A stretch of 64,000 bases of DNA from a virus: the IMG/VR virus record IMGVR_UViG_3300045988_120652; one strand, written 5' to 3'. This document shows positions 24,499 to 52,804 of the stretch, in pieces. The position numbers and the translations under genes are program-made. A model generated the notes under the pieces. The model made no database searches. It was not told the DNA's origin and was given only the letters and a program-made list of their open reading frames with translations. Position 1 is the stretch's first letter; each line of letters begins with the position of its first letter.

Positions 24499-24936
24499 AT
24501 GATCACAAAACTCAATTTCACCGACCGCACCATCAAGAGCTATGCCATCCGCAAGCTCACGCCCAAGGAGTGTTTCCGCTTGATGGGCGTTCGCGACAAC
24601 GTAATCGGCACGATGCAGAGCAGCAATGCCCAGGCAGCCGAACGTCTGCCCGACTGGAAGGGCAAGGGTAAACCCGAAGACATGGCTATATCTGCATCAC
24701 AGCAGTACAAGCAAGCTGGAAACAGCATCGTGGTGGACGTGTTGGCCCACATCTACGAGCAGCTTTTCTACCCCGCCCCGCCCAAGCCTCGCCCTGGCGA
24801 ACAGCTCACGCTCTTCGACGACCTCGAAGACTCGCTGCCCGCTTTGCCGCCCCCCCCGCAGCCGACAAGAACGAGGAGAAGATATTCCTCACCACGTTCT
24901 CCGGCTACGACTCTCAGCTCATGGCAGCCGACGTGA
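24499..24936 (+). CDS. C5 DNA methyltransferase C-terminal module (motifs IX and X) plus a Pro-rich linker; the reading frame is lost at the C8 tract
   Basis: IRKLTPKECFRLMGV is motif IX and QQYKQAGNSIVVDVL is motif X. After ...DDLEDSLPALPPPP, the tail (QPTRTRRRYSSPRSP...) looks like out-of-frame sequence. Confidence 0.8.
   Translation: MITKLNFTDRTIKSYAIRKLTPKECFRLMGVRDNVIGTMQSSNAQAAERLPDWKGKGKPEDMAISASQQYKQAGNSIVVDVLAHIYEQLFYPAPPKPRPGEQLTLFDDLEDSLPALPPPPQPTRTRRRYSSPRSPATTLSSWQPT
24850..24857 (+). repeat. C8 homopolymer at the junction between the motif IX-X and motif I-VIII reading frames
   Basis: Read as GCCG-CCCCCCCC-GCAG. One extra C would give ...LPALPPPPAADKNEEKIFLTTFSGYDSQLMAADV..., fusing the two ORFs in frame. 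Confidence 0.8.
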
Positions 24937-25811
24937 TACGCGAGTGGCATCCCGACTTCCGATGGACGTGCAAGGGATGGAGCGACATCGACAAATACGC
25001 CTGTCAGATGCACAACCTCGTCTTCCCTCAGTTTGCCGACTGCGCCCTGGGCGACATCACCAAGATTGACTGGCACGAGGTGAAACGCTCGCTCAAAGGC
25101 CGCGAGGTTGACCTCTTCACCTATTCCTCGCCCTGCCAGGACATCAGTCAGGCTGGCAAGCAGATGGGTTTGCAGGAGGGCAGCGATACCCGAAGCGCAC
25201 TGCTTTGGCGTGTGGCGGATGCCGTGGAGGTGCTTCGCCCGAAGTATCTCTTGCAGGAGAACGTGGCGGCACTGGTAAGCCAGAAGTTCATGCCCGACTT
25301 TCAGAAGTGGCTCGACAAACTCTCCTCGCTCGGCTATGTCTCTCGCTGGGCTCGTCTTAACGCCAAGAACTACGGTGTGCCGCAGAACCGCGACCGTGTG
25401 TTCTGCCTCTCCATGCGCCGTGACGTGGCCTTCGACTATCAGTTTCCCGAACCCTTCGAGCTGCTTATCCGACTGGAGGATGTGCTCGAAGAGGAAGTGT
25501 CCGACCGCTATTTCCTCAAGGATGATGCCGTGAGCAAGTTCCTCAAGGCAAACGACTCTGACAATGCCTTATTCCTTCAATTCGACCTGCCACCGACACA
25601 TGAGGCGGCAATGTTCCTCAAGACATGGCTCACGCTGCGCATGAACACTTTCAACGGATGGGAGAGGGATTTGGACGAACTGCGCGATTGCATCGAGAAC
25701 GAGCGAGATGTATTAAACAGCGATTTTGCAAGTTTCAGCGAGTATCATACATTCCCTTGCGAAGGTTTTGAGGAATTGTTTAAGGAGAATATGAAGAGGA
25801 AGAAGGAATGA
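24921..25811 (+). CDS. C5 DNA methyltransferase catalytic module (motifs I-VIII). Motif I lies upstream of the first ATG in the same open frame
   Basis: This frame is open back to at least 24783 and encodes KNEEKIFLTTFSGYDSQL (motif I, 24897-24917) before ATG 24921. It continues with WSDIDKYA (II), SSPCQDISQAG (IV, catalytic PCQ), TRSALLW (V), LLQENV (VI) and NYGVPQNRDRVF (VIII). A ~100-aa tail of unknown function follows, with no motif IX/X. Confidence 0.85.
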   Translation: MAADVIREWHPDFRWTCKGWSDIDKYACQMHNLVFPQFADCALGDITKIDWHEVKRSLKGREVDLFTYSSPCQDISQAGKQMGLQEGSDTRSALLWRVADAVEVLRPKYLLQENVAALVSQKFMPDFQKWLDKLSSLGYVSRWARLNAKNYGVPQNRDRVFCLSMRRDVAFDYQFPEPFELLIRLEDVLEEEVSDRYFLKDDAVSKFLKANDSDNALFLQFDLPPTHEAAMFLKTWLTLRMNTFNGWERDLDELRDCIENERDVLNSDFASFSEYHTFPCEGFEELFKENMKRKKE

Positions 25812-31185: not shown

Positions 31186-31215
31186 CTATGTCCGCACCTT
31201 CTCCCCGTCTTTCCT

Positions 31216-31223
31216 TAACTTTG
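31216..31223 (+). promoter_or_regulatory. -7 promoter element TAACTTTG
   Basis: TAnnTTTG match between the terminator and ATG 31260. It argues for the 31260 start rather than 31188. Confidence 0.4.
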
Positions 31224-31259
31224 CGCTATAGACATTCAACAAAACACATATTCAACACA

Positions 31260-33020
31260 ATGACAACAGTTAGCAACTTAAACGAGCTCCAACAACGTAG
31301 TGAGGAGCTTCAGTCGCAAGGCTACGAGGCCGTTCTGCCTGGCGCGTTCTGTGCGCCCAAGCAGGGAGGCAGCAGTGTGTGTTCATGGGGCGATTACGTT
31401 CACCAGAAGCTCACGGCTTCGGCCACCATGACCGGAGCGGAAGGCAATGCGGCAAGACGGGAGATTTCTGCCGTGTTCGGCTCGTCGGGCGGCGAGAACA
31501 AAGCCAAACCCGAAGGTGTGGGCACTAAGGGATTGGGCTTTATGGAGTGGGGATTGGACAACCGACTGCCTAACCTCATATATCTGCTCTCCAAGATGTC
31601 GCCCTTTCCGGCAGCGGGAGTTGACTTCGTGAAGAAAATCCTCGTGGGCCGTGGGCCGTGCGCCAAGTATCACTATACGCAGTATGTCGGTGGCAATATC
31701 ACCGAGAAGTCTATTTCCTACCCTTCGGCTGGCACCTTGCTCCGCGGGCAGATAGCCGACCTCAAGGCTAAGGAAAAGCAAATGTCAGAATCGGAAAACC
31801 AATCTTCACAATCGGATAACCAATTCACAAAATCGGTTAATCAACTCTCACAATCGGCAAACAATTCTGAGAGTGAAGACAGCGAGGAAATGAAGTCGTT
31901 GAAGGCAGCATTGGAAGAATGGAAGCGCACCAACGAGGAGTTGCAAGCCTTCATCGAGAACAACGACCTCCACAAGACCTACCTTGAGATGGCAGGCGAT
32001 ATGTCGCTCATGTCGCAATGCTTCTGCGAGTTGCAGCTCAATCAACGCCAGTTGGACGAAAACGGCCGTCCCGTGCCTACGTCGCAGTGGAACCCGAAGA
32101 TTGTGGGCATAAAGCCTCGCTCGGTGTTCACCACCCGACTGGAGCGCATGGACAGTCAGTATCGCATCAACTATGCCTACCTCTCTAACCAGTGGCTCGA
32201 CTCCACGCAGACGCTCGCCGAAACCGACCGTCGCATTGCCGCCGTGCCTTATCTCGCAGCCGACACAGCCGTAGCTGATCTCAACCGCCATGTGCGTGAG
32301 GCTCGTCAGCAGCGTGTGAGCCGCAAGAACCGCCCAACACGCTTCATCATGTCGCCACGCGACTTTGGCGGTCCTTACTATGCCGATGCCATGTGGCACA
32401 GCATCTTTGCCGGAAGCATCTTCGAGTATGCCTTCACCATCATCGACGACCGACTCACTCGCAAGCGCAACAGCAACATTATCGGTCGTGTCATATACAT
32501 CCATCAGGAATACCTCAAGCAGCTCTACACGCAGCAGGGCGAGAACAAAAGCAAGACGATGGCTCAGATACAGCAGGAGGTGTTCACCGACATCAACCGC
32601 TGGCTCTCCAATCCCGACAATGCAGGTCAGGCTCTTATCTCTGCCGTGTTTACCGGACTGGACGGCAAGGAGCACAAGGCATGGGAGATTGTGGAGATTG
32701 AGAGCAAGGCCAACTCGCAAGCGCAAGCCGAGAAGACCGAGCTTCAGGAAATATCTTCCATCATCTTCTTTGCCATGGGCTTGGACTCGAAGCTCATTGG
32801 CAACACCCCAGGCGACGCTACATCATCGGGCGGCACCGACCTCCGCGAGCGTTTCCTTGTAAAGCAAATTCAGTTCGCCCCATTGCAGCAGCTCATGCTC
32901 CGACCGTTGGAGGTGATAAGCAAGTTCAATAAATGGGACTCGCACCTTGTGTGGCAGATAGACCGCGAAGTGCTCACCACGCTGGATAACTCGAAAACAG
33001 GGGTGACGATGCAGGAATAG
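31260..33020 (+). CDS. Large virion-module protein, possibly portal (not verified)
   Basis: 586-aa ORF at the head of a late operon, with an internal Ser/Gln/Glu-rich linker. No diagnostic motif was recognised, so the portal idea rests on size and position only. Confidence 0.3.
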   Translation: MTTVSNLNELQQRSEELQSQGYEAVLPGAFCAPKQGGSSVCSWGDYVHQKLTASATMTGAEGNAARREISAVFGSSGGENKAKPEGVGTKGLGFMEWGLDNRLPNLIYLLSKMSPFPAAGVDFVKKILVGRGPCAKYHYTQYVGGNITEKSISYPSAGTLLRGQIADLKAKEKQMSESENQSSQSDNQFTKSVNQLSQSANNSESEDSEEMKSLKAALEEWKRTNEELQAFIENNDLHKTYLEMAGDMSLMSQCFCELQLNQRQLDENGRPVPTSQWNPKIVGIKPRSVFTTRLERMDSQYRINYAYLSNQWLDSTQTLAETDRRIAAVPYLAADTAVADLNRHVREARQQRVSRKNRPTRFIMSPRDFGGPYYADAMWHSIFAGSIFEYAFTIIDDRLTRKRNSNIIGRVIYIHQEYLKQLYTQQGENKSKTMAQIQQEVFTDINRWLSNPDNAGQALISAVFTGLDGKEHKAWEIVEIESKANSQAQAEKTELQEISSIIFFAMGLDSKLIGNTPGDATSSGGTDLRERFLVKQIQFAPLQQLMLRPLEVISKFNKWDSHLVWQIDREVLTTLDNSKTGVTMQE

Positions 33021-33042: not shown

Positions 33043-33813
33043 ATGATAGAACTGAATAAGATATATAATGAAGACTGCCTCGAAGGAATGAAAAGGATTC
33101 CAGACGGGAGCGTGGATTGCATCGTATGCGATTTGCCGTATGAAGTTCTGAACAAAGGCAATGAAAAGGCACGATGGGATAACATTATCCCGATGGAGCC
33201 TCTATTCAAGGAATACTGGCGAATAGCAAAAACTAACGCTCCTATTATTCTCTTCGGTCAAGGAATGTTTACGGCACAGCTAATGATGGCAGAACCTGAC
33301 ACATGGCGATATAATCTGATTTGGCAAAAAGACAGACCAACAGGATTTCTCAATGCGAAGCGGATGCCTATGCGGAGCCATGAGGATATTGCTGTGTTCT
33401 ATCGTGCGCTACCTACATACAATCCACAAATGAGACAAGGTTTCCCCTCTCACACACGAGGGCATAAACACGGAAAAGCAAAGGGTAATGTCTGTTATGG
33501 CAACTATAATATTGAGACCTACTCAAAAGAAGTAACAACAGAGAAATATCCTATATCTGTATTGTTCTTCGACAAAGAAAAGAATCTTGATATGCACCCC
33601 ACTCAAAAGCCCGTAGCTCTTATTCAGTACCTCATTCGCACTTACTCCAACGAGGGCGACACCATCTTAGACAACTGTATGGGTAGCGGAACCACCGCCA
33701 TTGCAGCCATCCGCGAGAAGCGCAACTTCATCGGCTTCGAGCTCAACAAGGAGTATTACGACAAGGCTTGCAAACGCATTAAGTTGGAGCAAGCGCAGCT
33801 CAAGCTGTTCTGA
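33043..33813 (+). CDS. N6-adenine or N4-cytosine DNA methyltransferase (beta class)
   Basis: The catalytic motif IVCDLPYEV (DPPY-type) is N-terminal. The SAM-binding motif ILDNCMGSGTTAIAAIREKRNFIGFELNKEYY is C-terminal. This order is typical of beta-class amino-methyltransferases. Confidence 0.85.
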   Translation: MIELNKIYNEDCLEGMKRIPDGSVDCIVCDLPYEVLNKGNEKARWDNIIPMEPLFKEYWRIAKTNAPIILFGQGMFTAQLMMAEPDTWRYNLIWQKDRPTGFLNAKRMPMRSHEDIAVFYRALPTYNPQMRQGFPSHTRGHKHGKAKGNVCYGNYNIETYSKEVTTEKYPISVLFFDKEKNLDMHPTQKPVALIQYLIRTYSNEGDTILDNCMGSGTTAIAAIREKRNFIGFELNKEYYDKACKRIKLEQAQLKLF

Positions 33814-40870: not shown

Positions 40871-43800
40871 ATGAATAAAACGTTTTATACTAAATTCGCA
40901 GTAGAAAAAACTAAATATATGACATTAACAACAACTAAAGACTATTGGGTCTCGCCCACTGCCCTACACATAGAACTTAACGCTATGTCACGCCCCGACT
41001 ACGTACAGGCATCGTGTACCGGTGAAGCTCAGATACTTGTGTATGTCAAGGACATCATTGACTACGATGCTGGACATAACTATCGCCGTTGGCCATTGCA
41101 GGCCTCGCCTACTGTCTTTAATAGTCATTCTGAAAAATATGTCTATGCGGCTATACCTCGTAGTCTAAATTCGGCTGCGTCCGCATGGATTGTTTTCCCT
41201 TCCGAACAGATTGATATCTACGGCAAAAACGAGAAAGAAGAGCAGATTGGTGACGAGCGTTTTTATTATATCTTCCTGCAAGGCATTATTACTTCTTCGG
41301 GCGATAACGGTACGGTAAATCGAGATTGGAAAGTTGAATATTTCTCTGGCTATTTGTCTTCCGACGAAGCTATCTCATCGATCTTGAACGATTCAGTTTG
41401 GTATAGCTACAGTACAGTGTCTAATACGGTCACATTTCTAAAGAATATGACCATGAAAGCGGGTACTTGGTTTCGTGATTTTTTCGCTAAGACCGTTACT
41501 ATAGTGTCAGGCGGCAGTATCACGTTCGAAGGTGACAAACAGGCTTCGTTGTCGGGTATAGCTCACGAAAACACTTCGCTTGAAGTAGAAGACCGAATCG
41601 TGACACCTAAATATCTTGACCTGAAAGCCCTCTCGAAAGTACATGACGATGAAGCGCAGGGAATGATCCGTTTTTTGAACGGGCTGAAACTCGGGAATAC
41701 GGAAAAAGGACTAACAGGAGTAGGTGACGCTGTGCTGGGCGATGTTATCGTTGACCGTGTGCATGACGTGGACTCTACTCCTGCCGACCGTGTGGTTGTG
41801 GGCGCACAGGGCTTCGACCTGTACTTGGGCAAAGACGGCAAGAGTCACCTGTATATTGACTACCTGGTGGCGAGGGTGAAGGCTTTCTTCGCACAGTTGG
41901 AGATTCGCAGGGTGTCGTACTCGGGCGGCACGACTATCTTCTCGAACGCGGGCTCGACTATAGCAAAGGTAATGGAGCTGAAAAACGGCAATGAGACAGT
42001 GGCGTACAAGTGCTATGCCGTTGCCGACGACGGCACTACGAAAACGATGAACTGGTGGCATGTGGGCATGATGGCGCTGTGTCAGACGTTCAACGTGAAG
42101 TCGGACACGAGCAATGATGTGTCGAACCGATACTATTGGCGACTTGTGGTTGACACCGGGCAGGAGGTGCTGGCTGACGGCAAGACTTACGACTATGTTG
42201 TGTTGTCGAACTTAAAGGATTTTGACGGCAATGGTACGGTGCACGGGGATATAAGACCGTTGTCTGCTTTGTTTGAGGAGTACGAGAAAAAGACTGCTGA
42301 CGATAGCAAAACCCCGGTAGCGAGCCGTAGGTTTTACGGCTACGAGGCTGTGGACGGTGGCGAGCCTGACGCTCCTGCGGAGGGTGACGTGATTGTGCAG
42401 GTGGGCGACCAGATCAGGTGGGAGTCGTATGGCAATGTGATAAAGCTCGCTACTTCGACCGAGGATAATAACACGGGCAATGCTCCTTCTATTACGATGT
42501 ATCACGGCATTGGCGCGCCTCGCATGGTGGGCACTGCGGTCACGCCTTACGTATGGCAGGAGGTGACGTGTATTCTGTCGCCGGGGAAGGTGAGAATAAA
42601 TGCTGACATGTTCGAGTTGTTTTCGGCCAGTACGGGCAATGTGATTGAGCCTTACGTGGTGTCGTATGAGCTGGTGCCTACGAGCAGGACGCTTGTAAAG
42701 CACGACGACGGCACGACGACTCCGAATGGCTTCGGGGTGGACGTGATAAAGCGTGTGGGCAGCTCGAAGACGGTGCTAAAGGCTGATGAATACACGGTGA
42801 AGGCTGAGGTGACGTATGAGGATGGAAACACGGAGACGTTTAGTCTTGCTGACCTGTACGAGAGTGTACTTCGCAATCTGACTGCCTTGAAGCTGGTAGC
42901 TTGCAGCGCAAAGGATGCTACTGATGTGCTTGCAGAGACAGACATTGCCGTGCTGAGTGACGGCAAGAAGGGCGCTGACGGTGCAAATGGAAACGACGGT
43001 GCAAACGGTACGGACGGTGAGAGTGCGATTGATGTGATATGGTATCCTAATCCGCTTGTTATCAACACGACGAGCGACGGCAGTGGCAATGTGTATGCTG
43101 ACTGTAGCAATGCTACGGCACGAGTGAGTTTTTGGCGCGACAACGAAAATTGGGGAGAAAGATATATCGACCAAATCTCTGTGCAGAATGAGGTAAACTG
43201 CCATGCGACCGCCGAGATTCAGAATGGCGATTTTACGGTTAAGATATTAAGCATTGAACATGATAGTATAAAAACTAAAGACGGTAAGTCGATAACGGTG
43301 CCTCGTACTACTGCGAGCGTGACGATAGCAGCCCGCTATTGGGTGACTGCGAGCATGTTCACTCACGTATTCGCAACGCTGTCTATCAACGTCAACGTAT
43401 CGGCGGTGTGGGGCGGCATCGAGATGAATATGTACGGGTTGACAAGTAGTTTCTCTGAGATTAGCAATAAATACAATGGCCTACCGCTGAAGACACAGGG
43501 CGAGCTGACGGACTATACTTCGACTATCAAGCAGACGGCACGGGATATTTCGCTGAAGGTGAGCGAAACGGCTGTGGGCAGGAAGAATATGCTTGTGGGC
43601 TGTGCGCTGAGACGGCAGGGTGAAGGAGTGAGAATACAAACACAAGAAGGTGGCGGTATAGAGACTATCGGAGGCGTAGGCGGTGTGAATTGCGTTCACG
43701 TAGTAGCTACAACAGCGAATCACTACTCGGGATTATTCTGGTGGGGAATCACTCCCAATGATACGAAGTGTATAAAGATTGAAAAAAACAAGACTTACAC

Positions 43801-45652
43801 GGCATCTGTTTGGGTGAAATGCGACAGAACTGATGCTAAGGTTTACATCGAGGCTAAGTGGGCGGAGACTGCAACTGGTGGCGAGCGCCTTGACTCCGTG
43901 ATACAAAGCGGCGACAATCTGTTTTCTGTCAAGCAGGCGAACACATGGCAGTTCTGCTCGGTGACGTTCAACACCAACGACGAGACAAAGTTCAAGGACT
44001 ACATCGAAATGAACTTTTGGGTTAACAACAAAACCGAGGGAATAACTACTAATGCCTGGTTCTGTCAACCCATGTTGGTCGAGGGCGACGAATATGTAGG
44101 ATGGTCTATGTCGAAGGAGGATGCTGAGTATGTTGGCGGCAACCTGCTGGATAATACTGATACGCTGAAGACTGGCGGCACGCTGACAGTGGCGACTGAG
44201 AATACGTGGCTGCATCCGACAAACGGCAGCGCGGACGAAATTGCACGGCAGACTTATAACGGTTGCGCTACGCTCAACTCGGACGCTCGCTACTATACGA
44301 AAAACATCGACACTGTACAGTGGGATTTGGGTGATACGGGCTTTATTAAGCGAGGACAGGACTATATGCTTAGTTTTTGGGCTAAAGGCAACAAGGGCGA
44401 ACGTTTTTGTGCATATCTGTATAAGGACGGCTCGCAGGGTATTTATGCAGAGGTGCTTGACCATGTTGACGGGCATAACCAGCTGACAAGCGGTGACGGT
44501 TACGCCATGGTGGAGTTTGACAAGAATTATGAATGGAAGCAGTACTGGGTGCATTGGAGAGTGGTAGACAGCAATCTGCCTAAATACGTGCTTATACGCT
44601 GTGTGCAGGGTTGTAACCTCTGCATATCTCAGCCTAAGCTGGAGTATGGCGCTACGGTGACGGACTACACCACAAGCCGCTCTATGTCGTCGCGACTGCT
44701 TGACGCTGGCATAGACATAAACAGCAAGCAGATAATGCTGACGGCAGACAAGACTAAGTTCCGCACGCAGTCTGGGGATGAGGTGGCTGTGTTTGACGAT
44801 AAGGGTATTAATGCAAAGCTGCTCAATGTGGATAATGCTGTTGCTAATGTAATAAAAACCAATGAATTGACAGCTAAAAATCTGAATGTGACAGGCAGCA
44901 GTACGTTCGGAATATGGAAGATTGAGCATGACAGTACTTATAACTGCGACATCATCACTGCCAATGTTGATACGTGGGGAGGGGTGAACATAAGCGGCAG
45001 CATGATACAGTACACCCCTGCCTTTGTGAGGAGCGGCGACCCTTTGAGCGGATACATGCGTGTGGGCGCTTACGTGACGGAGTTCGGCTTCGGCGAGAGC
45101 AGCGGTCAGTACTATTCTGGGGTGTGGCTGGGCAGGGCTGCATATACTGTTGCTAACGGAAAGCAGAACAGCTGGGGTCTGCCTTCGGCATACAAGATGG
45201 CGGATGAGTCTGTGGACGCGACGAAATTCGTAGCTTACGTATACTCGCCTTATAGCGGCAATACGCCGTCGGTGTACATGTACAAGCCGAAGGGTGGCGT
45301 GGTGATGGAGACGAATGCAGGTATACGTGCTGCCTTTATCAGTCATGTGCACGACACTGGCAGCGATTCGGGTGCAGGTGACAGCACTGGACTCATAGTC
45401 ACTACCAACAACAGCTACAGTATCACGGTGAAGCTGCCGAATAACCCTATAGCTGGACAGCAGGTGACGGTGGTGCAGAAGGGCCGCGGCAAGGTGAAAA
45501 TAAAAAGCACAACGGCGAACATACGCACAGCTGGCGAGTCTTCGGCTACGCAGCAGCGTATTAGCGACTCGCAGGGACAGATAAGTCTTTTTGTGTTTGA
45601 CGGCACTGACTGGAACTGCTCTTACTTTAACAGCAGAATGTATTCGAGCTAA
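40871..45652 (+). CDS. Giant tail fibre / host-adhesion protein (1593 aa)
   Basis: The call rests on size and position. There is a short collagen-like Gly-X-Y run (GADGANGNDGANGTDG, about 42960-43020). Two regions resemble carbohydrate-binding jelly-roll modules (...QPMLVEGDEYVGWS..., ...ISQPKLEYGATVTDYT...). The 539-aa antisense ORF is treated as spurious. Confidence 0.6.
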   Translation: MNKTFYTKFAVEKTKYMTLTTTKDYWVSPTALHIELNAMSRPDYVQASCTGEAQILVYVKDIIDYDAGHNYRRWPLQASPTVFNSHSEKYVYAAIPRSLNSAASAWIVFPSEQIDIYGKNEKEEQIGDERFYYIFLQGIITSSGDNGTVNRDWKVEYFSGYLSSDEAISSILNDSVWYSYSTVSNTVTFLKNMTMKAGTWFRDFFAKTVTIVSGGSITFEGDKQASLSGIAHENTSLEVEDRIVTPKYLDLKALSKVHDDEAQGMIRFLNGLKLGNTEKGLTGVGDAVLGDVIVDRVHDVDSTPADRVVVGAQGFDLYLGKDGKSHLYIDYLVARVKAFFAQLEIRRVSYSGGTTIFSNAGSTIAKVMELKNGNETVAYKCYAVADDGTTKTMNWWHVGMMALCQTFNVKSDTSNDVSNRYYWRLVVDTGQEVLADGKTYDYVVLSNLKDFDGNGTVHGDIRPLSALFEEYEKKTADDSKTPVASRRFYGYEAVDGGEPDAPAEGDVIVQVGDQIRWESYGNVIKLATSTEDNNTGNAPSITMYHGIGAPRMVGTAVTPYVWQEVTCILSPGKVRINADMFELFSASTGNVIEPYVVSYELVPTSRTLVKHDDGTTTPNGFGVDVIKRVGSSKTVLKADEYTVKAEVTYEDGNTETFSLADLYESVLRNLTALKLVACSAKDATDVLAETDIAVLSDGKKGADGANGNDGANGTDGESAIDVIWYPNPLVINTTSDGSGNVYADCSNATARVSFWRDNENWGERYIDQISVQNEVNCHATAEIQNGDFTVKILSIEHDSIKTKDGKSITVPRTTASVTIAARYWVTASMFTHVFATLSINVNVSAVWGGIEMNMYGLTSSFSEISNKYNGLPLKTQGELTDYTSTIKQTARDISLKVSETAVGRKNMLVGCALRRQGEGVRIQTQEGGGIETIGGVGGVNCVHVVATTANHYSGLFWWGITPNDTKCIKIEKNKTYTASVWVKCDRTDAKVYIEAKWAETATGGERLDSVIQSGDNLFSVKQANTWQFCSVTFNTNDETKFKDYIEMNFWVNNKTEGITTNAWFCQPMLVEGDEYVGWSMSKEDAEYVGGNLLDNTDTLKTGGTLTVATENTWLHPTNGSADEIARQTYNGCATLNSDARYYTKNIDTVQWDLGDTGFIKRGQDYMLSFWAKGNKGERFCAYLYKDGSQGIYAEVLDHVDGHNQLTSGDGYAMVEFDKNYEWKQYWVHWRVVDSNLPKYVLIRCVQGCNLCISQPKLEYGATVTDYTTSRSMSSRLLDAGIDINSKQIMLTADKTKFRTQSGDEVAVFDDKGINAKLLNVDNAVANVIKTNELTAKNLNVTGSSTFGIWKIEHDSTYNCDIITANVDTWGGVNISGSMIQYTPAFVRSGDPLSGYMRVGAYVTEFGFGESSGQYYSGVWLGRAAYTVANGKQNSWGLPSAYKMADESVDATKFVAYVYSPYSGNTPSVYMYKPKGGVVMETNAGIRAAFISHVHDTGSDSGAGDSTGLIVTTNNSYSITVKLPNNPIAGQQVTVVQKGRGKVKIKSTTANIRTAGESSATQQRISDSQGQISLFVFDGTDWNCSYFNSRMYSS

Positions 45653-45684: not shown

Positions 45685-46467
45685 ATGAAAAAGATTGTAA
45701 GAGGTAATGATTTTACGCTTCGCATCCCGGTGCGTAAAATCGTGGGTGGGCAGACGGAAAAATTTCCGCTGCCTGCCTGTGAGGAGGTGGAGGTGAACCT
45801 TGTGAATGCCTTCAGGCGCAGAAAGCTGACGTTCGCGATTAGTGCGGAAGACGACTCGCTGATAGAGGCTACGGTGCGAAGCTCGGAAATGGCACTCGGC
45901 TCATACGCCCTGGAGGTACACGGAAAGCTGTTCGGCTGTTCTTGGCGCAGTAACGAGTATGAGCAGATTATGCTCGTGGACAATAATGCCAAGGGTGATA
46001 CGGCGTTTGGCGAGGTGATAGAGGGCGAGGACTCGGTGGAGATGGACACGGCTATCGTTGTGCTGCCTCCGAGCGTGGAGCTGGGCAAGCTGATTGAGAG
46101 CGCTGGCGAGGCTATCGGCAAGGTGGACGCTAAACTGAGCGAGGTGGACGTGCGCATAGACAAGGCTGTAGGGGATGCTGGCGCTGCTACCATATCGGCT
46201 AATACCGCTGCCGGATATGCTAACGAGCAGGGCGACCGTGCCAAGGCGCTGGCTGACCATCCGAACATCATCGGTGAGGACGGATATTGGATGAAGTGGA
46301 ATGAGGAGACGGGAGAATATGAAAAAACAGACAAATACTCCAAGGGTTCGTTTGATTACCCGACGTTTGACGTGGTAGAAGGTAAGCTGATTGCCTGTAT
46401 CACGGAGGGCGATATGGACAGATTCAAATTGTCGGAAGAAGGACATCTGCTCGTAGCACAGAACTAA
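45685..46467 (+). CDS. Tail fibre-associated protein
   Basis: 260-aa ORF between two fibre genes. Confidence 0.45.
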   Translation: MKKIVRGNDFTLRIPVRKIVGGQTEKFPLPACEEVEVNLVNAFRRRKLTFAISAEDDSLIEATVRSSEMALGSYALEVHGKLFGCSWRSNEYEQIMLVDNNAKGDTAFGEVIEGEDSVEMDTAIVVLPPSVELGKLIESAGEAIGKVDAKLSEVDVRIDKAVGDAGAATISANTAAGYANEQGDRAKALADHPNIIGEDGYWMKWNEETGEYEKTDKYSKGSFDYPTFDVVEGKLIACITEGDMDRFKLSEEGHLLVAQN

Positions 46468-46494
46468 TACGAAGAACGATTTTTATAATAACAA

Positions 46495-49194
46495 GTGAAT
46501 ATGGAAAAGAAGTACATTGACATGGGTAGTGTCGGCATGCACCCTAAAGGGGCATACGACGCGAGTGTGACTTACTGTAAGCTACAGCTTGTGACGCACG
46601 GCGGCAACACCTATCTGAGCAAGGCGGACGGCAACATCGGGCACGAGCCTGTGGGTGAGGACGAGTGGTGGAGCCTGCTCGTGGACGCTAAGAGCGCTCA
46701 CGACGGTGCTCAGAGTGCGCAGGAGGCTGCGGAAGCGGCTAACGCTGCCGCCCAGACTGCTAATGACAAGGCTGCGGAAGCTGCCCAGGCTGCGGAGAGC
46801 GTGACTACTGCTACGGCAGGGCTACAGGCTGCTTTGGACAAGGTGGATGCAGCGGCTACGGCTGCGACTTCGGCTTCGGCTTCGGCACAGGCTCAGGCAA
46901 GCCGTGCGCAGGAGGCTGCTGAGCAGGGCGAAGCTCTCAACCTACAGCTTACCGACACGCTGCGTAAGGCTAAGGCGGAGGTGGATAAGGCTGTGGCTAT
47001 TAACAATACGGCAACAGCTAATGAGCAGGAGCGCGTGAAGGCTGAGCATGAGCGTGCAGATGCCAGCCAGCAGGCTGTGATGAACGCTAACACGGCTGCT
47101 GATTCTGCAAATACTGCTGCCGAGAAGGCTAACGGAGGCGCAGAAAAGGTGTCTGCTGCGGTAACTGCTGCCAGCAACGTTAACGCGACTCTTGCTGACG
47201 ACGGATTGCTGACTGTGACTAATCGCAACGGTGAGAGTAAAAGCGTGAAAGTAGGTGAAGGCGAGAAGGTGAACCAGCTTGTAGCGGACATGAAGGAGAC
47301 TAAGGAGGCTGTGGCACAGAACGCTGCGGACATTGCCGAACTGAAGGAGAACGTTAAGGACTACTATGTAGGCGAGAACGACGAGGTGACGGGCGACCCT
47401 CACTTCAAGAACTGCAAGGGCAACAAGGATTTCTTGGGCGAATGGCATCCGTTCCTTATCGACCATACCGACAACACTGGCGAGGCTACACACCCCGTAG
47501 GTCAGCTGATGGACAATAATCACTTCCGCTTTGTGTCGGGTGCGTTTGCGCCTACCGTTGGTATTACAGAGGAAATGCGTGCTGCGTGTGATGTACAACT
47601 CTATACCGATGCCGAGCACACTACCCCACTGACACTGAAAAATGGTGTCGTCGTTACTGATAAGGCTGGCGCACATCCTTACGATGCAACAGAGGTGTAC
47701 AACTCGCTTGGTTTGGTAGACTTGTACGACGGCGAGGGTAACAAGGTGCGTCAGTTATTGCCTTGGGAGACCACAGAGACCAAGTATTCGGTGATGATTG
47801 GTCGCTACGACACCCTATATCCAGTAGACCGCCAGACAGGCGAGAGCGGTAAGGTGCTGTCGGGTATATTCAAGCGTCAGGTGCGCTACGACGGCATTGA
47901 TACGGGCAAATACCCGTTGCTTGGTACGGCATTGGCACCATGCCTGGTGACGACAGTGGGCAACAAGACACGCAACTTCTTCTTTGCGTATGCGGTAGGT
48001 GACGCTAATACTGCAAGCGGTGCGAGCTCAGCAGGCGCGGACATGTGCTCGATGTTTGACGGAGAGGACAGGACTTATCCGCGGTACAGTATTAACCAGA
48101 TGAGTGACATGCAGTACGCACGAGCTAACAATGCTGACGTAAATGCACCAGTGCCGTTTGCCGAAGGCGGTTATCACGCTATCAACACCTTCACGTTGTG
48201 CATGGAACTGCTTTATGGTACAAAGTATCTGCATGACAAGAACTTGTTCGGCTCGGGAATATCGAGCAACGACTCATGTGCATCGGCGGATGACTGGATG
48301 AATAACGGTGGCGTGAGGGTGCGCGAGAAAGGCACTACAGACTGGACATATAAAAAATGGGGCGACCAAACGCCGTTTGGCGTAAAGTCGGATATGAGCA
48401 AGGTTGGTTTTTCGAACTTTGTCAATCAGGAGAAACCGAAGGAGCAGTGTATGGAGAGTCAGATGGCAGCATCGTGGGCTGTGGAATTTGGCATAGCAGA
48501 AGATACGGAGTATGAGGCATACGGACAGACGTATCGCTACAGAAATGTGACAGGAGTAAAGGGACTGGCTGACGGCGTGATGAACTGCAAGGTGTATCGC
48601 ATCAAGACAGGTGCGTGTATGGGTTATAAGGCTGCGGACAGTAAGGTTGAGTATGACTGTGAGTTGTGTCTACGTCTTAGTCTTGTACATGGTATGAACC
48701 TAAGCGGAGACGTGTTCGGCTACTGGGGCGGCGGCATGGAAATGGTGGGCACGGGAAAGCAGCAGGAGAATACTATCCAGGACAAGATAAAGAACACCTA
48801 CATAGACTTCTACCTTGAGCCAAAACAGAAGAACTGGCTCATGGAAAATAAAACCACCCTTAGCGACTTCAAGACGTTTGCATTTGAGGGCGTGTATGCC
48901 AAGATAGGCACGTTCGGACCTCCAATATTAGGCGGCGGTTACTTCAAGAAGCGTATGGGGCTAACTCCTTACAAGACGGAGAACGGCGGAAATATAGATT
49001 CTTATCAATGCTGCTACGGATGGGCAGAACCGTATTGGCTTGACCGATACGGGCAGCGCGTTCGTATAGCCGTGCGCTTTCGTGGCTTTGCGTCTGCTGC
49101 GTATTGTTCGCCTCGGTTTCTGTATGCGTACTACTCGGCTGCTCATACGTCCGTGTCTTATGGCGGTTCTGCCCAGTGTCGCATCGTGCAATAG
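46495..49194 (+). CDS. Tail fibre / receptor-binding protein carrying the DGR variable region at its C-terminus (likely start ATG 46501)
   Basis: Ala/Gln/Glu-rich coiled N-terminal part. The C-terminal 38 codons are the VR (RFRGFASAAYCSPRFLYAYYSAAHTSVSYGGSAQC), which corresponds to the TR-encoded RFRGNANNANCSPRYLNANNSAANTNVNNGGSAQR. Confidence 0.8.
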   Translation: MNMEKKYIDMGSVGMHPKGAYDASVTYCKLQLVTHGGNTYLSKADGNIGHEPVGEDEWWSLLVDAKSAHDGAQSAQEAAEAANAAAQTANDKAAEAAQAAESVTTATAGLQAALDKVDAAATAATSASASAQAQASRAQEAAEQGEALNLQLTDTLRKAKAEVDKAVAINNTATANEQERVKAEHERADASQQAVMNANTAADSANTAAEKANGGAEKVSAAVTAASNVNATLADDGLLTVTNRNGESKSVKVGEGEKVNQLVADMKETKEAVAQNAADIAELKENVKDYYVGENDEVTGDPHFKNCKGNKDFLGEWHPFLIDHTDNTGEATHPVGQLMDNNHFRFVSGAFAPTVGITEEMRAACDVQLYTDAEHTTPLTLKNGVVVTDKAGAHPYDATEVYNSLGLVDLYDGEGNKVRQLLPWETTETKYSVMIGRYDTLYPVDRQTGESGKVLSGIFKRQVRYDGIDTGKYPLLGTALAPCLVTTVGNKTRNFFFAYAVGDANTASGASSAGADMCSMFDGEDRTYPRYSINQMSDMQYARANNADVNAPVPFAEGGYHAINTFTLCMELLYGTKYLHDKNLFGSGISSNDSCASADDWMNNGGVRVREKGTTDWTYKKWGDQTPFGVKSDMSKVGFSNFVNQEKPKEQCMESQMAASWAVEFGIAEDTEYEAYGQTYRYRNVTGVKGLADGVMNCKVYRIKTGACMGYKAADSKVEYDCELCLRLSLVHGMNLSGDVFGYWGGGMEMVGTGKQQENTIQDKIKNTYIDFYLEPKQKNWLMENKTTLSDFKTFAFEGVYAKIGTFGPPILGGGYFKKRMGLTPYKTENGGNIDSYQCCYGWAEPYWLDRYGQRVRIAVRFRGFASAAYCSPRFLYAYYSAAHTSVSYGGSAQCRIVQ
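49068..49181 (+). repeat. DGR variable region (VR)
   Basis: 114-nt alignment with TR 49424-49537. There are 19 differences, and at 18 of them the TR base is A, mostly at positions 1-2 of AAY codons in the VR reading frame. The remaining one is C in TR versus T in VR. Confidence 0.9.
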
Positions 49195-49202
49195 GCGCAG
49201 CC

Positions 49203-49236
49203 GGGTGCAACCCAGTGCAGCGCGGTGCAACCGCGC
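49203..49236 (+). promoter_or_regulatory. Hairpins just downstream of VR (GGTGCAACC x2); candidate DGR homing-enhancing structure
   Basis: GGGT-GCA-ACCC (49203-49213) and GCGCGG-TGCAA-CCGCGC (49220-49236), 22-55 nt after the end of the VR homology. Confidence 0.5.
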
Positions 49237-49423
49237 CATGTCTTTGGCAATCAGAAACAAAATTAGTAACTTTATAGTGGTTTAAAAGATAGAATAAAAT
49301 GAATCAAGACAAAATATTTCCTCAAAAACAGGACAAGCTCAGCATGAGGGCCGAAGCCTCTGAAGCCTGCATGAGAGGTGACGCTATCCATATAGATGAT
49401 AGCTAAAGAGGTTGGTGTCTCCG

Positions 49424-49537
49424 AGCCGTGCGCTTTCGTGGCAATGCGAATAATGCGAATTGTTCGCCTCGGTATCTGAATGCGAACAACTCGGCTGCTA
49501 ATACGAACGTGAATAATGGCGGTTCTGCCCAACGTCG
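49424..49537 (+). repeat. DGR template region (TR)
   Basis: Adenine-rich counterpart of VR, lying in non-coding sequence 226 nt upstream of the RT gene. Confidence 0.9.
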
Positions 49538-49763
49538 GGCATCATAAATGATGCAGAACTAAGAACACGGGAACACCACTCTCGCTCAGGAGAAGCAGAA
49601 AATATCAAAGACAAGGGATGTGAGCGTAGCACGATGGCTGTACGTGATGCGGCGAACGTGACCGAGAGACATCCTGACGGGCAGACAGTCCCGTCAACCT
49701 TTTAAGCCCGACACTGAATATCAACAGCGGAGAAATCCGCATAAAAACATATATATAACAAAC

Positions 49764-51152
49764 GTGCATAGACCTAACTACATCCCCTTCACTGCCGACG
49801 ACTACATAAAGGCTGTGTGGAGTGCCGCAAAAGGCAGAAAGAAAAGACCCGAGGTAAAGGAGGCATTGAAGGATGTAAAAGGGCTATGCGCAAGTATTGA
49901 ACAACATCTCAAAGATGGAAGCTGGCATGAGGACATCAAGTACCGGAAGCTGACCAAGGTGAACAACAACAAGAAGGTGAGGCATATCGACGCGCCTACG
50001 TTCAGAACTTTAGTGTATGAACATCTGCTGAAGAACAAGTTGGAGCCGATATACCGCAGACGCGACCCGTTGGTGTCGATTAACTGCAAGGAAGGATGCG
50101 GAATAACACCATCGGCGAAGCACAAGGAACTGAAAAGCCACTATGTGCTGCCAAGAGTGAAGCACCTGTTCTACGACCTGCGGGATATGGACTGGGTAGT
50201 GACTGCCGACCAACGTCAATGCTACGCTCACGTGAAGCCGAGCGTACTGCGCAAGGAACTGAAATATCTTATTGGCGACAAGTGGCTGATAGACTTCGCT
50301 GTGGAGCTGTGCTTTGTTGACGGGCAGTTGCCTGTAGGCACACCTACGAGTCCGCTGGCTCACCACATACTGATGCTGAGATTCCATGAATGGCTGTGCC
50401 GAAACACCGAATGGCGGCTGTGCTATGCCGACAACTGCATGGTAGCTTGCCGGACGAAGGAAGAAGCACAACAGATGAAGTGGCGAATAAGGCAGTATTG
50501 GTGGTATGAGCTGAAGATGAGGGCGAAGCGTACAGATACGAAGGTTGCTAATATCAACGACGGTAGAGGGATTGACTTCTGCGGTTATAGGGTGATACGC
50601 AACGCCGACAAGAACGTGACAGACTCGAACAAGGGATATTGCCTTATACGCAAGGGCACATTGCTGAGAGCAAGGATGTGTAACAACGACAATTCGTGGG
50701 GCAGCTACTTCGGACTGATGCGGCACACGGACGGATTCGGAGAGATGGTAAAAATAGAAAAGGAGATGAAGTTAAGAGAACTGACAAAAAAGATTCGCAT
50801 AGACCGCAAGATGGACGCTCCGAATATCAAGCCTCTGGAGTTGGCACGTAGCGGACAGGCGTTCACGGTGTTCGATTACGAGATACGCAAGAGCGAGAAG
50901 TCGGGCGAGCCTAACTGGATTAAGATGCTGATAGGTATGCCGGAGGTGACCGAAGACGGCGAGCTTACGGGCAAGATTGTTGCCAGGGAGGTGCATGGTG
51001 GAATGATGGGCATTGTGGCTTGGATGGTGGCAGCGGAGCAGGAGTATGGCAAGAAGACCTTGCTGCCGTTGGAGGACGTGAGGATTGTGGACGAGTGCGG
51101 ATATATCTTTGAAGGCTCGACTAATCAGATGCAGTACATTGATGAATGTTGA
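49764..51152 (+). CDS. Reverse transcriptase (DGR-associated, divergent; GTG start)
   Basis: RT-like blocks are DQRQCYAHVKPSVLRKEL (motif 2-like), QLPVGTPTSPLAHHIL (motif 4-like) and RLCYADNCMVAC (motif 5, YADN in place of YxDD). A C-terminal extension of about 140 aa follows. The gene is adjacent to the TR. Confidence 0.8.
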   Translation: MHRPNYIPFTADDYIKAVWSAAKGRKKRPEVKEALKDVKGLCASIEQHLKDGSWHEDIKYRKLTKVNNNKKVRHIDAPTFRTLVYEHLLKNKLEPIYRRRDPLVSINCKEGCGITPSAKHKELKSHYVLPRVKHLFYDLRDMDWVVTADQRQCYAHVKPSVLRKELKYLIGDKWLIDFAVELCFVDGQLPVGTPTSPLAHHILMLRFHEWLCRNTEWRLCYADNCMVACRTKEEAQQMKWRIRQYWWYELKMRAKRTDTKVANINDGRGIDFCGYRVIRNADKNVTDSNKGYCLIRKGTLLRARMCNNDNSWGSYFGLMRHTDGFGEMVKIEKEMKLRELTKKIRIDRKMDAPNIKPLELARSGQAFTVFDYEIRKSEKSGEPNWIKMLIGMPEVTEDGELTGKIVAREVHGGMMGIVAWMVAAEQEYGKKTLLPLEDVRIVDECGYIFEGSTNQMQYIDEC

Positions 51153-51189
51153 GTGTTGAATTTTAAATGTTTAATGTTAATTTTTTATT

Positions 51190-51774
51190 ATGGAGAAGTA
51201 TTATTTTGACGAGGCACAGCCGAGACTGACTGTTGGCGACGGTGTCGTTCTGCTGCTTATCAACGGCAAGGAAGAGACGGAGTTTTCGGACGGTATGCCT
51301 GACGAGAACGGAATGGCGACTACCGAAGCGGTGGTGCGCAAGGTGTGGGTATATGACGGTGTGCGCCTGGAGACGGGCGGCATGACATCGGAGGCTGCGC
51401 TTACTGCTGCGGCACAGAAGATGGTGTTGGCGGAGATTGAGAAGTACGACACGTCTCCTGCTGTAAACAGCTTCATCCTTAACAGACAGCGTGTGTGGCT
51501 GGACAAGGCGACTCGTGTGGGACTGATGAACTCTACTACTATCGCTAAGGCTATGGGACAGCCTACTACTACGCTGTGGCTTGGCGATGCGAAGCTGGTG
51601 GTGGAGTGCGACAAGGCGATACAGTTGCTCTCGGCACTGGAGATGTATGCTCTGGAGTGCTTTAATGTTACGGCTGCGCATAAGAAGGCGGTAGCGGAAA
51701 TGAGCACGGTGGAGAGTGTACTGGGGTATGACTATACGAAGGGGTACCCAGAGGTGCTGACGATGAACGTTTAA
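51190..51774 (+). CDS. DUF4376-like protein (possible tail fibre assembly/chaperone)
   Basis: The C-terminal pattern ...LECFNVTAAHKKAVAEMSTVESVLGYDYTKGYP resembles the DUF4376 ending (HK..I..L.T.EEL..YD...GWP). This is from memory only. Confidence 0.4.
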   Translation: MEKYYFDEAQPRLTVGDGVVLLLINGKEETEFSDGMPDENGMATTEAVVRKVWVYDGVRLETGGMTSEAALTAAAQKMVLAEIEKYDTSPAVNSFILNRQRVWLDKATRVGLMNSTTIAKAMGQPTTTLWLGDAKLVVECDKAIQLLSALEMYALECFNVTAAHKKAVAEMSTVESVLGYDYTKGYPEVLTMNV

Positions 51775-51791
51775 CTTTTAACTTTAAGAAT

Positions 51792-52265
51792 ATGGTAGTA
51801 TTGAGTTTTATTGCGGCATTGCTGTTTGTAGCTTTGCTGTACATAGTGATTAATAAGTATGGAGTGCCTGACATGGTATCGTCTATCTATTACTTGATGG
51901 GCAAGAAGGGTTGGGTGTTCCAAGTGGTGATGATGCTGTTTGGTGCAATGATGATGGTGTGCTTGCTCGACAGCGGACTGGGTGTGCCGTGCCTTGCTTT
52001 CTTGGCTTGTGCAGGGCTGATGTTCGTGGGTGCTGTGCCGAGGTTCCTGGATGAGAGCGAGAGGAAGGTGCATAAGACGGGTGCTATCGTGTCGGCTGTG
52101 GCGAGCGTAGGCTGGTGTCTGACGGTGGATTGGAAGATTGTGGTTGCACTGTTGGGGTGGTATGCAGTGTTCTGGGCGTGTAGGAGCGAGGACGACCATC
52201 CGTGGTTTATGGCGGAGATAACGGCTGTATGGATGGTATTGTTGACGTACTGGAGCGTATTCTGA
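51792..52265 (+). CDS. Multi-pass membrane protein, candidate holin
   Basis: 157 aa with about 4-5 hydrophobic segments, immediately upstream of the lysozyme gene. Confidence 0.45.
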   Translation: MVVLSFIAALLFVALLYIVINKYGVPDMVSSIYYLMGKKGWVFQVVMMLFGAMMMVCLLDSGLGVPCLAFLACAGLMFVGAVPRFLDESERKVHKTGAIVSAVASVGWCLTVDWKIVVALLGWYAVFWACRSEDDHPWFMAEITAVWMVLLTYWSVF

Positions 52266-52372: not shown

Positions 52373-52804
52373 ATGAAAGCAAGTGACGTATTGATTGAGA
52401 AGATTAAGCAGTTTGAAGGGTATCGGGCGAAGGCGTACCGATGCCCTGCTGGGGTGTGGACGTGTGGGTATGGGCATACCAAGGGTGTGACGGCTCGCAC
52501 GGTGTGCGACAAGAAGAAGGCGGAGGAGTGGCTGAGGGCTGACCTTGCTCCTATCGAGAGCTTCTTGTCTGCCGTGCCGGAGGTGTGTAAGTCGCAAGGA
52601 CGCTTTGACGCTTGTGCGGACTTCTGTTTCAATCTTGGTACGGGTGCGTTCCGTGGGGCTACGCTGTTTAAGCTGATACAGAAGAAGGCTTCGGTGGCTG
52701 CTATCCAGGCGGAGTTCTTGAAGTGGGTGTATGCCGGAGGTAGACAGATTGAAGGACTGAAGACGAGGAGACGGTGGGAAGCGGGACGCTTCGCGGAGTT
52801 TTGA
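52373..52804 (+). CDS. Endolysin, GH24 (T4/lambda-type) lysozyme
   Basis: IKQFEGYRAKAYRCPAGVWTCGYGHT aligns with T4 lysozyme [23 protein letters not shown]. The catalytic Glu and Thr26 equivalent are conserved, while Asp20 is replaced by Cys. Confidence 0.85.
   Translation: MKASDVLIEKIKQFEGYRAKAYRCPAGVWTCGYGHTKGVTARTVCDKKKAEEWLRADLAPIESFLSAVPEVCKSQGRFDACADFCFNLGTGAFRGATLFKLIQKKASVAAIQAEFLKWVYAGGRQIEGLKTRRRWEAGRFAEF

Follow-up and report, generated by a model that had tools for sequence, protein, structure and literature searches.

Introduction

Switching of host tropism by diversity-generating retroelements (DGRs) that act on phage tail fibers is established biology. In the experimental prototype, the Bordetella phage BPP-1 (cassette order mtd-VR-avd-TR-brt), a variable repeat (VR) at the C-terminus of the tail-fiber receptor-binding protein is rewritten from a template repeat (TR) by mutagenic homing. 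The changes are specific for TR adenines and fall in AAY codons, and the GC-rich sequence for initiation of mutagenic homing (IMH) has a non-identical counterpart (IMH*) in the TR. A GC-rich hairpin or cruciform after the VR is needed for efficient homing of BPP-1; its stem sequence is free, whereas its 4-nt GRNA loop is not (PMC3240598). Cassettes devoid of an accessory gene such as avd, in the order target gene-VR-TR-reverse transcriptase (RT), are known from DGRs of Bacteroidota and crAss-like phages (PMC7290462). The closest described system is that of the epsilon crAss-like phage crAssE-Sib (record OR575929.1; Viruses 2024, PMC11054128), the RT of which carries GxxxSP in motif 4. This RT lineage has become known only recently, from epsilon crAss-like phages; according to the authors who described crAssE-Sib, myDGR misses it because of the GxxxSP motif (PMC11054128).

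Here, a 64,000-nt stretch of viral DNA (IMG/VR record IMGVR_UViG_3300045988_120652; in the following, the window) was analyzed. Between positions 46495 and 51152 it contains, in this order, a target gene, a VR with IMH, a hairpin array, a TR with IMH*, a spacer, and an RT gene. By its functional signature this cassette is a DGR, and it is of the GxxxSP-RT (crAssE-Sib) type, with an RT and a target module that are homologous, and identically ordered, to those of Epsilonunovirus phages. Judged from sequence comparison, it is very probably a complete, Avd-less element, and one that was at work while this phage lineage diverged. A preliminary description of this DNA, made from its sequence alone, had already called a DGR at this position; comparison of 27 VR/TR pairs supports that call and strengthens it considerably. 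The element is ordinary in kind. Its modest importance lies in documenting, by comparison of related phages, activity of the GxxxSP RT lineage, which also occurs outside Crassvirales.

With BPP-1, the window cassette shares the adenine-specific signature of TR-to-VR mutagenic homing, the location of the VR at the C-terminus of a tail-fiber receptor-binding protein, the AAY codons, a GC-rich IMH with a non-identical IMH*, and a GC-rich hairpin downstream of the VR with conserved loop and variable stem (PMC3240598). In contrast to BPP-1, no Avd was detected in it. The lineage 3 DGRs of Bacteroidota and crAss-like phages (e.g., crAssphage LMMB), which are devoid of Avd as well, have the same order target gene-VR(IMH)-TR(IMH*)-RT; they, too, target a tail or tail-collar fiber and lie where the cluster of structural genes ends (PMC7290462). 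With crAssE-Sib, the window cassette shares the order target-VR-IMH-TR-IMH*-RT, as annotated in OR575929.1 (where no Avd is annotated either), the receptor-binding module, a similar VR-encoded peptide, and GCA-triloop hairpins after the VR. The two differ in that the host genomes are unrelated, the window phage having a tape-measure protein (PF10145), and in that the window target carries a long coiled-coil N-terminal shaft.

Results and Discussion

The repeat pair differs almost exclusively at template adenines

A direct-repeat search within positions 46000 to 52000 returned a single long pair, 49068-49181 (VR, + strand) and 49424-49537 (TR, + strand), each of 114 nt, alignable without gaps and 83% identical. 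The VR lies within the target gene (46495-49194), with its 3′ end 13 nt ahead of the stop codon; the TR is noncoding, intergenic, and situated 356 nt downstream of the VR. Comparing the two base by base, the 19 mismatches given in the preliminary description were confirmed by our own count, as was the presence of adenine in the TR at 18 of them (11 A>T, 5 A>C, and 2 A>G); the lone mismatch of another kind is C>T at 49533/49177. Given an adenine content of the TR of 27 in 114 nt, the binomial probability for at least 18 of 19 mismatches falling on adenine is 8 × 10−11. In the reading frame of the target gene, 16 of the 18 adenine mismatches affect the first or second position of an AAY codon. 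The preliminary description had assigned all of them to these positions, which does not apply to the remaining two, located at position 2 of a TAT codon (49474) and position 3 of a CAA codon (49532).

The two mismatches closest to the 3′ end (49176-49177; GT in the VR versus AC in the TR) are identical in all 27 VR/TR pairs described below; they are, therefore, a fixed marker distinguishing IMH from IMH* rather than a product of mutagenesis. Thus, 17 of the 24 mutable adenines are mutagenized in the window, and the earlier attribution of the mismatches to adenine mutagenesis holds for these 17 and not for the 3′-most two. The IMH (49162-49181, + strand; GGCGGTTCTGCCCAGTGTCG) consists of a GC-rich core and the fixed GT, whereas IMH* (49518-49537, + strand; GGCGGTTCTGCCCAACGTCG), which ends in AACGTCG, forms the 3′ end of the TR. 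In every pair (27 of 27), the 3′ end of the VR reads ...CCCAGTGTCG and that of the TR ...CCCAACGTCG; the GC-rich core of the IMH is also retained in the distant relatives L001, L015, and L016. Mutagenesis is confined to the segment 49087-49160, with 24 variable positions (24 of the 27 TR adenines) in 13 codons, i.e., 11 AAY, one TAT, and one ACG. From none of these codons can a stop codon be reached, and together they span 2.8 × 1014 DNA and 1.4 × 1014 protein variants. No second VR-like copy was present in the 64-kb window, where the next best candidate agreed with the TR at 41 of its 87 non-adenine positions.

Related loci carry the footprint of repeated template-to-VR copying

Searching IMG/VR with the RT yielded 15 loci, 13 with RTs 83-99% identical to that of the window and two with RTs 44% identical. 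Scans for the exact 20-nt IMH yielded 12 viral and 22 metagenomic stretches, two of the latter (L029 and L043) being chance matches. Taken together, the RT-based and IMH-based scans provided 27 distinct VR/TR pairs on 20 distinct TRs. When the two fixed IMH marker positions were set aside, 360 of the 368 mismatches in these pairs were at TR adenines; about 50% of the TR adenines were substituted, compared with 0.1-0.7% of C, G, and T. The window and the loci L002, L003, and L004 have an identical TR and four different VRs, which depart from the common TR almost only at adenine sites (the exception being one T>G in L003), and the flanking DNA of these four phages is only 83-94% identical. Minor, lineage-specific TR alleles at non-adenine positions were also found in the cognate VR in 166 of 168 cases. 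Because this was also true for 95 of the 97 alleles that are synonymous in the VR frame, the match between TR and VR alleles reflects copying and not selection at the protein level. As far as can be judged from these sequences, the agreement is the footprint of repeated copying from TR to VR after the lineages had split. The resulting diversity is visible in the target proteins, where, within one 90%-identity cluster, 16 of the last 45 alignment columns vary, compared with three of the preceding 195; a third cluster of this protein comparison was uninformative as it contained a mixture of RT-containing and target proteins.

One database target protein, P0248 (from the cluster of P0013), ends with the exact translation of a TR (...RGNANNAKCSARYLNANNSAENTNVNNGGSAQRR-AS), IMH* included. 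This reflects either an assembly jump from VR to TR, or a genuine recombination or deletion between the two. The protein gives the impression of a VR-TR fusion, and direct repeats 356 nt apart could indeed recombine, so that one might regard the repeats as a common duplication upheld by homologous gene conversion, with the adenine bias being caused by selection and without any reverse transcription. Such a process would, however, neither limit 98% of the differences to the adenines of one copy nor account for a directional marker being fixed at the 3′ end, and it is at odds with the RT gene being always adjacent and under purifying selection. Gene conversion is, thus, hardly credible as the source of this pattern.

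The reverse transcriptase combines GxxxSP with YADN

The ORF previously noted 226 nt after the TR was confirmed, including the length of the gap, as an RT gene (49764-51152, + strand; 462 aa from a GTG start). It matches Pfam RVT_1 with 37.1 bits (cut-off 29.6; E = 3.5 × 10−9) and the RT family of PHROG with E = 2.4 × 10−27; its closest GenBank relative is the RT of crAssE-Sib (45% identity at 99% coverage), which has the same GxxxSP motif 4. The window contains no other RT. Assignment to other RT classes was not supported, as the NCBIfam profiles for group II intron RTs (57.5 bits; cut-off 300) and retron RTs (21.7 bits; cut-off 235) remained below threshold, and PADLOC gave generic RT models only with respect to defense-associated RTs; nor did Rfam, at a permissive threshold, return any family between 48900 and 50000. 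Motif A (Asp149) is encoded at 50208-50210, motif 4 (VGTPTSP) at 50334-50354, and motif C (YADN; residues 221-224) at 50424-50435, all on the + strand. The C-terminal region of the protein (residues about 330-462, ∼130 aa; 50751-51149, + strand) is conserved and has no match in Pfam; it may represent an enlarged thumb or else an accessory domain. The enzyme is about 130 aa longer at its C-terminus than Brt of BPP-1. In the Suoliviridae crAss-like phages, DGR RTs are only 21-25% identical to the RT family of the window; the two sampled, cr6_1 and cr55_1, both have YADD, and the DGR-typical GxxxSQ (as IGNYLSQ) was found in cr55_1 only.

Several properties weigh against an intact and active DGR. 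Motif 4 is VGTPTSP, i.e., GxxxSP, and not the DGR-typical [LIV]GxxxSQ. Motif C, which aligns with FADD and YADD of solved RTs, reads YADN and not YxDD, and loss of the second aspartate might be expected, by analogy with other RTs, to impair catalysis. Neither Avd nor another accessory gene (HRDC), such as most though not all DGRs possess, was found by Pfam in the neighboring ORFs on both strands or in the C-terminal region of the RT. The best match of the target module among Protein Data Bank (PDB) entries, the variable protein TaqVP (5vf4), is not significant (Foldseek; E = 0.11, TM 0.27/0.40). Finally, the evidence for activity comes entirely from comparisons between assembled contigs, from which we infer present-day activity in this phage.

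The first three of these properties would also be expected of a fossil, in which the VR was diversified in an ancestor, the YADN/GxxxSP enzyme is now dead, and the VR is frozen; many cassettes related to that of crAssE-Sib indeed contain fragmented or deleted RT genes (PMC11054128). With respect to motif 4, a GxxxSP-type motif, usually GTPTSP, is present in nearly all of the 120 best homologs of the RT; GxxxSQ is a typical feature of DGR RTs, employed by DGR finders, rather than a mechanistically defining one. With respect to motif C, the window shares YADN with L002-L014 and with all 24 distinct RT genes from related loci; being common to all of them, YADN is older than the divergence of these lineages. 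It thus predates phages whose VRs differ at adenine sites under an identical TR, and into whose VRs lineage-specific non-adenine TR changes, synonymous ones included, were copied. The sequence evidence, therefore, speaks against the YADN enzyme being dead. The 24 RT variants are all intact, with dN/dS of 0.05-0.10 at dS of up to 1.25, and the Asn codon of YADN itself switches synonymously between AAC and AAT. Furthermore, YADN occurs in 21 of the 120 best database homologs, some of them only 47-49% identical to the window RT, which argues for YADN as a maintained functional state; the remaining 99, crAssE-Sib included, have [YF]ADD. A fossil is, by this evidence, very unlikely, and a DGR active during the divergence of the lineage remains the preferred interpretation.

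The second aspartate of YxDD is conserved in nearly all known RTs, and no mention of a YADN reverse transcriptase was found in the literature searched. In polymerase active sites, the direct metal ligands are the first aspartate of YxDD and the motif A aspartate, and GDN occurs naturally in some RNA-dependent polymerases; because of this, asparagine at the second position is plausible, if unusual. Both described relatives retain the aspartate, crAssE-Sib with YADD and Brt of BPP-1 with YMDD (PMC3240598), in contrast to YADN of the window. The conservation of YADN in an evidently functional RT is mildly surprising and represents a natural experiment on the role of the second motif C aspartate.

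A tandem array of GCA-triloop hairpins follows the VR

Immediately downstream of the VR, where two small GC hairpins (49203-49236) had been noted before, an array of three DNA hairpins with GCA triloops is located (49194-49236, + strand); the two were correctly positioned and a third one precedes them. Hairpin 1 (GGC-GCA-GCC, 3-bp stem; 49194-49202) overlaps the last base of the TAG stop codon of the target gene, hairpin 2 (GGGT-GCA-ACCC, 4-bp stem; GGGTGCAACCC) spans 49203-49213, and hairpin 3 (GCGCGGT-GCA-ACCGCGC, 7-bp stem; GCGCGGTGCAACCGCGC) spans 49220-49236; they start 12, 21, and 38 nt, respectively, past the end of VR homology. A fourth GTGCA motif is present at 49215-49219, and all of these elements are on the + strand. 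The stems covary in 15 relatives (94.7% of cells paired, five pairs with compensatory changes, score reached by none of 500 shuffles), for instance from GGG/CCC to AAG/CTT, or, in the long stem, from G-C to C-G to A-T. In L015, L016, and crAssE-Sib, the RTs of which are 44-45% identical to that of the window, two to four tandem hairpins with entirely different stems display the same GCA loop. The 7-bp stem is the sole GCA-loop hairpin of at least 5 bp in the whole window, and together with its 4-bp neighbor it makes up the only GC-rich ones. Such post-VR hairpins were absent from the sampled Suoliviridae crAss DGRs.

Folded as a single DNA sequence, the post-VR region was energetically not better than shuffled controls (z = 0.08), and the centroid structure kept only the 7-bp hairpin; because of this unexceptional folding energy, the case for the hairpins rests on comparison. 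The array departs from the consensus for phage DGR hairpins, a stem of 7-10 bp with a GRNA tetraloop located 4-34 bp from the VR (PMC3240598), in having tandem stems of 3, 4, and 7 bp, a GCA triloop, and a spacing of 12, 21, and 38 nt; BPP-1 itself has one 8-bp hairpin with a GAAA (GRNA) tetraloop, in contrast to the three tandem hairpins with 3-nt GCA loop described here. By analogy, the array looks like a lineage-specific, tandem triloop version of the BPP-1 homing signal. GNA triloops closed by a sheared G-A pair are unusually stable DNA mini-hairpins, which fits a role of the array at the DNA level.

Whether the hairpins act in homing at all has to be considered because they could also be simply an intrinsic terminator of the tail-fiber gene. 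The 7-bp hairpin (49220-49236) was flagged as terminator-like, its T tail (CATGTCTTTG) being weak, in some relatives the last hairpin is followed by TTTT or TTTG, and the folding energy, as stated above, is unexceptional. A function in termination only would, however, not account for an invariant GCA loop on covarying stems, nor for the recurrence of that loop in relatives with RTs of no more than 44-45% identity; hairpins of this kind are found at no other gene end in the window, and crAss DGR lineages with different RTs do without them. In BPP-1, moreover, the post-VR hairpin with its sequence-specific loop is required for efficient homing (PMC3240598), and roles in termination and in homing are compatible with each other. 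Termination alone is, thus, an unlikely explanation, albeit one with some merit. Instead, the array is proposed to be a target-site recognition or homing element, which possibly serves as terminator, too. As an invariant triloop on covarying stems, in two to four copies, it is a clean candidate for a target-recognition signal comparable with the GRNA tetraloop of BPP-1.

The TR-RT spacer and the region upstream of the TR

The 226 nt between TR and RT (49538-49763, + strand), presumed to be the 3′ part of the DGR RNA, are highly conserved in 24 variants. In crAssE-Sib the corresponding spacer has a length of about 92 nt, and the spacers of distant relatives, which are much shorter, also contain the motif AAAGACAAG. 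Hairpins on the + strand are predicted directly after IMH* (GCATCAT-AAA-TGATGC; about 49539-49555), at 49676-49695 (GACGGG-N8-CCCGTC; with compensatory changes according to RNAalifold), and at 49727-49740 (GCGGA-GAAA-TCCGC). The latter is deleted in L012 and, therefore, dispensable. All four hairpins that the preliminary description had listed, post-VR and spacer ones alike, were recovered to within one base of where it had put them. By analogy with the spacer RNA of BPP-1, this segment probably positions or primes cDNA synthesis.

Upstream of the TR, at 49299-49406 (+ strand; MNQDKIFPQKQDKLSMRAEASEACMRGDAIHIDDS), a 35-codon ORF or conserved RNA segment ends 17 nt before the TR, at the place taken by Avd in canonical DGRs. 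In 26 relatives this ORF has retained its ATG and frame, even across 3-nt indels, and dN/dS is about 0.4. Variability is flat over the codon positions; in L039 and L050, whose VRs are still mutated at adenines, the ORF is frame-shifted or shortened, and it is absent in L001, L015, and L016. It could encode a micro-protein, or belong to the DGR RNA as its 5′ part. In the stretch from the post-VR hairpins to this ORF (window equivalent about 49240-49298), L002, L006, L009, L012, L045, and others contain variable numbers of the short tandem units GGAGTTA, GGAATTA, or GTGAAGA. In their place, the window is AT-rich and has a sigma-70-like match at 49271-49300. The region is likely the fast-evolving promoter region of the TR-RT transcript. 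Two further candidates were discarded. A stop-free antisense frame over the TR (49272-49532, − strand) is an effect of composition and not kept in all relatives, and a potential stem between CCTCT, upstream of the TR, and AGAGG, just before it, shows no compensatory changes in close relatives.

The target is a tail-fiber protein with a C-terminal receptor-binding module

The target gene (46495-49194, + strand) was identified as coding for a tail-fiber/receptor-binding protein from the ORF list and from matches in PHROG and in the structure database BFVD. The first start candidate is the GTG at 46495, from which an 899-aa protein would be made, as annotated previously; the ATG two codons further on (46501) is the more likely start, and the protein would, therefore, comprise 897 aa. 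The description as a tail fiber with a C-terminal VR was otherwise borne out by the ORF and by the fiber matches. At its N-terminus the protein has a short anchor; this is followed by an Ala-rich coiled-coil shaft (about aa 60-285) and, at the C-terminus, by the receptor-binding module. The N-terminal part matches a PHROG tail-fiber family weakly (E = 4 × 10−5), and no Pfam family was found for the protein.

The receptor-binding module (615 aa; 47347-49191, + strand) carries the VR at its C-terminus. It is covered by 334 database homologs, none of which has a Pfam domain or a name, and it is 43% identical to the crAssE-Sib receptor-binding protein over 602 aa (E = 8 × 10−150). It has no detectable sequence similarity to Mtd, the target of BPP-1. 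The AlphaFold2 model, calculated from an alignment of 37 sequences, is confident (pLDDT 92, pTM 0.93). When searched against BFVD, it matched phage receptor-binding, tail-fiber, and tail-collar-fiber proteins (E between 1 × 10−30 and 1 × 10−12), proteins of RT-bearing crAss-like phages included, and also a protein annotated after TvpA from Treponema (E = 9 × 10−5). The C-terminal 376 aa (module residues 240-615) modeled alone gave a poor result (pLDDT 69) and, in the PDB search, noise; according to the models, the module is one that folds confidently only as a whole. The C-type-lectin DGR variable proteins TaqVP (PDB 5VF4) and TvpA (PDB 2Y3C) are not related to the module at the sequence level, the latter being much larger than either, and a profile of the target family found no relative among the PDB sequences. 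A C-type-lectin fold, which (or an Ig fold) displays the VR in DGR targets and was expected by the preliminary description, is likely, with indirect support via the homologous crAssE-Sib receptor-binding protein and the BFVD matches. Direct evidence for it is weak, the PDB search having given TaqVP as an insignificant best match.

Proposed mode of action

From the sequence we infer reverse transcription, its priming site, the role of the hairpins, and receptor binding by the VR-encoded residues, which would act together as follows. An RNA containing the TR and the conserved spacer would be transcribed, probably along with the RT message. The RT would copy the TR into cDNA, thereby misincorporating opposite adenines, and the cDNA would replace the VR in a one-way homing process, the direction of which would be set by the GC-rich IMH. 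The GCA-triloop DNA hairpins just downstream of the VR probably assist in homing. As a consequence, the 24 adenines in 13 codons would be randomized without generating stop codons, giving access to the ∼1014 C-terminal sequences of the receptor-binding module calculated above (1.4 × 1014), and the scaffold codons of the VR would be continually reset from the TR.

Beyond this, it is conceivable, with almost as much to be said for it as against it, that the YADN enzyme is a fully active adenine-mutagenic RT without the second YxDD aspartate, and that its family represents a distinct, mobile DGR subtype overlooked by DGR finders. The subtype would be marked by GxxxSP, YADD or YADN, the ∼130-aa C-terminal region, the lack of Avd, and GCA-triloop arrays as target-site signal, and it would have moved as a unit, with the receptor-binding module, between crAss-like podoviruses and unrelated phages with tape-measure proteins. 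The C-terminal region of the RT or the 35-codon ORF might take the place of Avd. If such a subtype existed, current DGR finders would miss it systematically. A myDGR run on the window would, by analogy with crAssE-Sib, probably fail because of the GxxxSP motif 4. Because the lineage is reportedly invisible to myDGR, and because it also occurs outside Crassvirales, hypermutation surveys of gut-type viromes undercount it.

The cassette resides in a phage that is not crAss-like

Despite the similarity of its cassette to that of crAssE-Sib, the carrier does not belong to the Crassvirales, as it encodes a 1948-aa tape-measure protein (PF10145; 8-5854) and a putative portal (ORF 31188-33020) without crAss relative. 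The portal and a 429-aa ORF (14113-15402) match only an unclassified fecal phage and a Polaribacter phage, with 24-25% identity, and no crAss relative of either was found; the 429-aa ORF was also tried as the major capsid protein, for which there was no support. In a megablast search with the cassette, none of 50,697 phage records matched at the nucleotide level. Given this and the 24-25% protein matches in the phage collection, the window represents an undescribed phage lineage. No relative of the RT was found in 185,579 representative prokaryotic genomes, and the phage could, therefore, not be assigned to a prophage or a host. A host among the Bacteroidota is probable; one homolog of the RT is from a Bacteroidales metagenome-assembled genome. 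The composition of the cassette showed no anomaly compared with its neighbors. Evidently, to judge from the sequences, the elements have traveled as a unit, from the receptor-binding module through VR, hairpins, and TR to the RT.

Elsewhere in the window, ThyX and two DNA methyltransferases are encoded at 8566-9462, 24921-25811, and 33043-33813; a tRNA scan found no tRNA genes. Immediately upstream of the fiber genes, and thus of the target, lies a gene for a 1593-aa protein with a CBM_4_9 carbohydrate-binding domain (40871-45652), and a lysozyme is encoded just downstream of the cassette (52373-52804). Directly after the RT, and outside the region homologous to crAssE-Sib, a gene at 51190-51774 (+ strand) encodes a 194-aa protein with a match to a PHROG tail-fiber family and 24.1 bits to DUF4376 (cut-off 25), which could be a fiber chaperone or a second fiber component.

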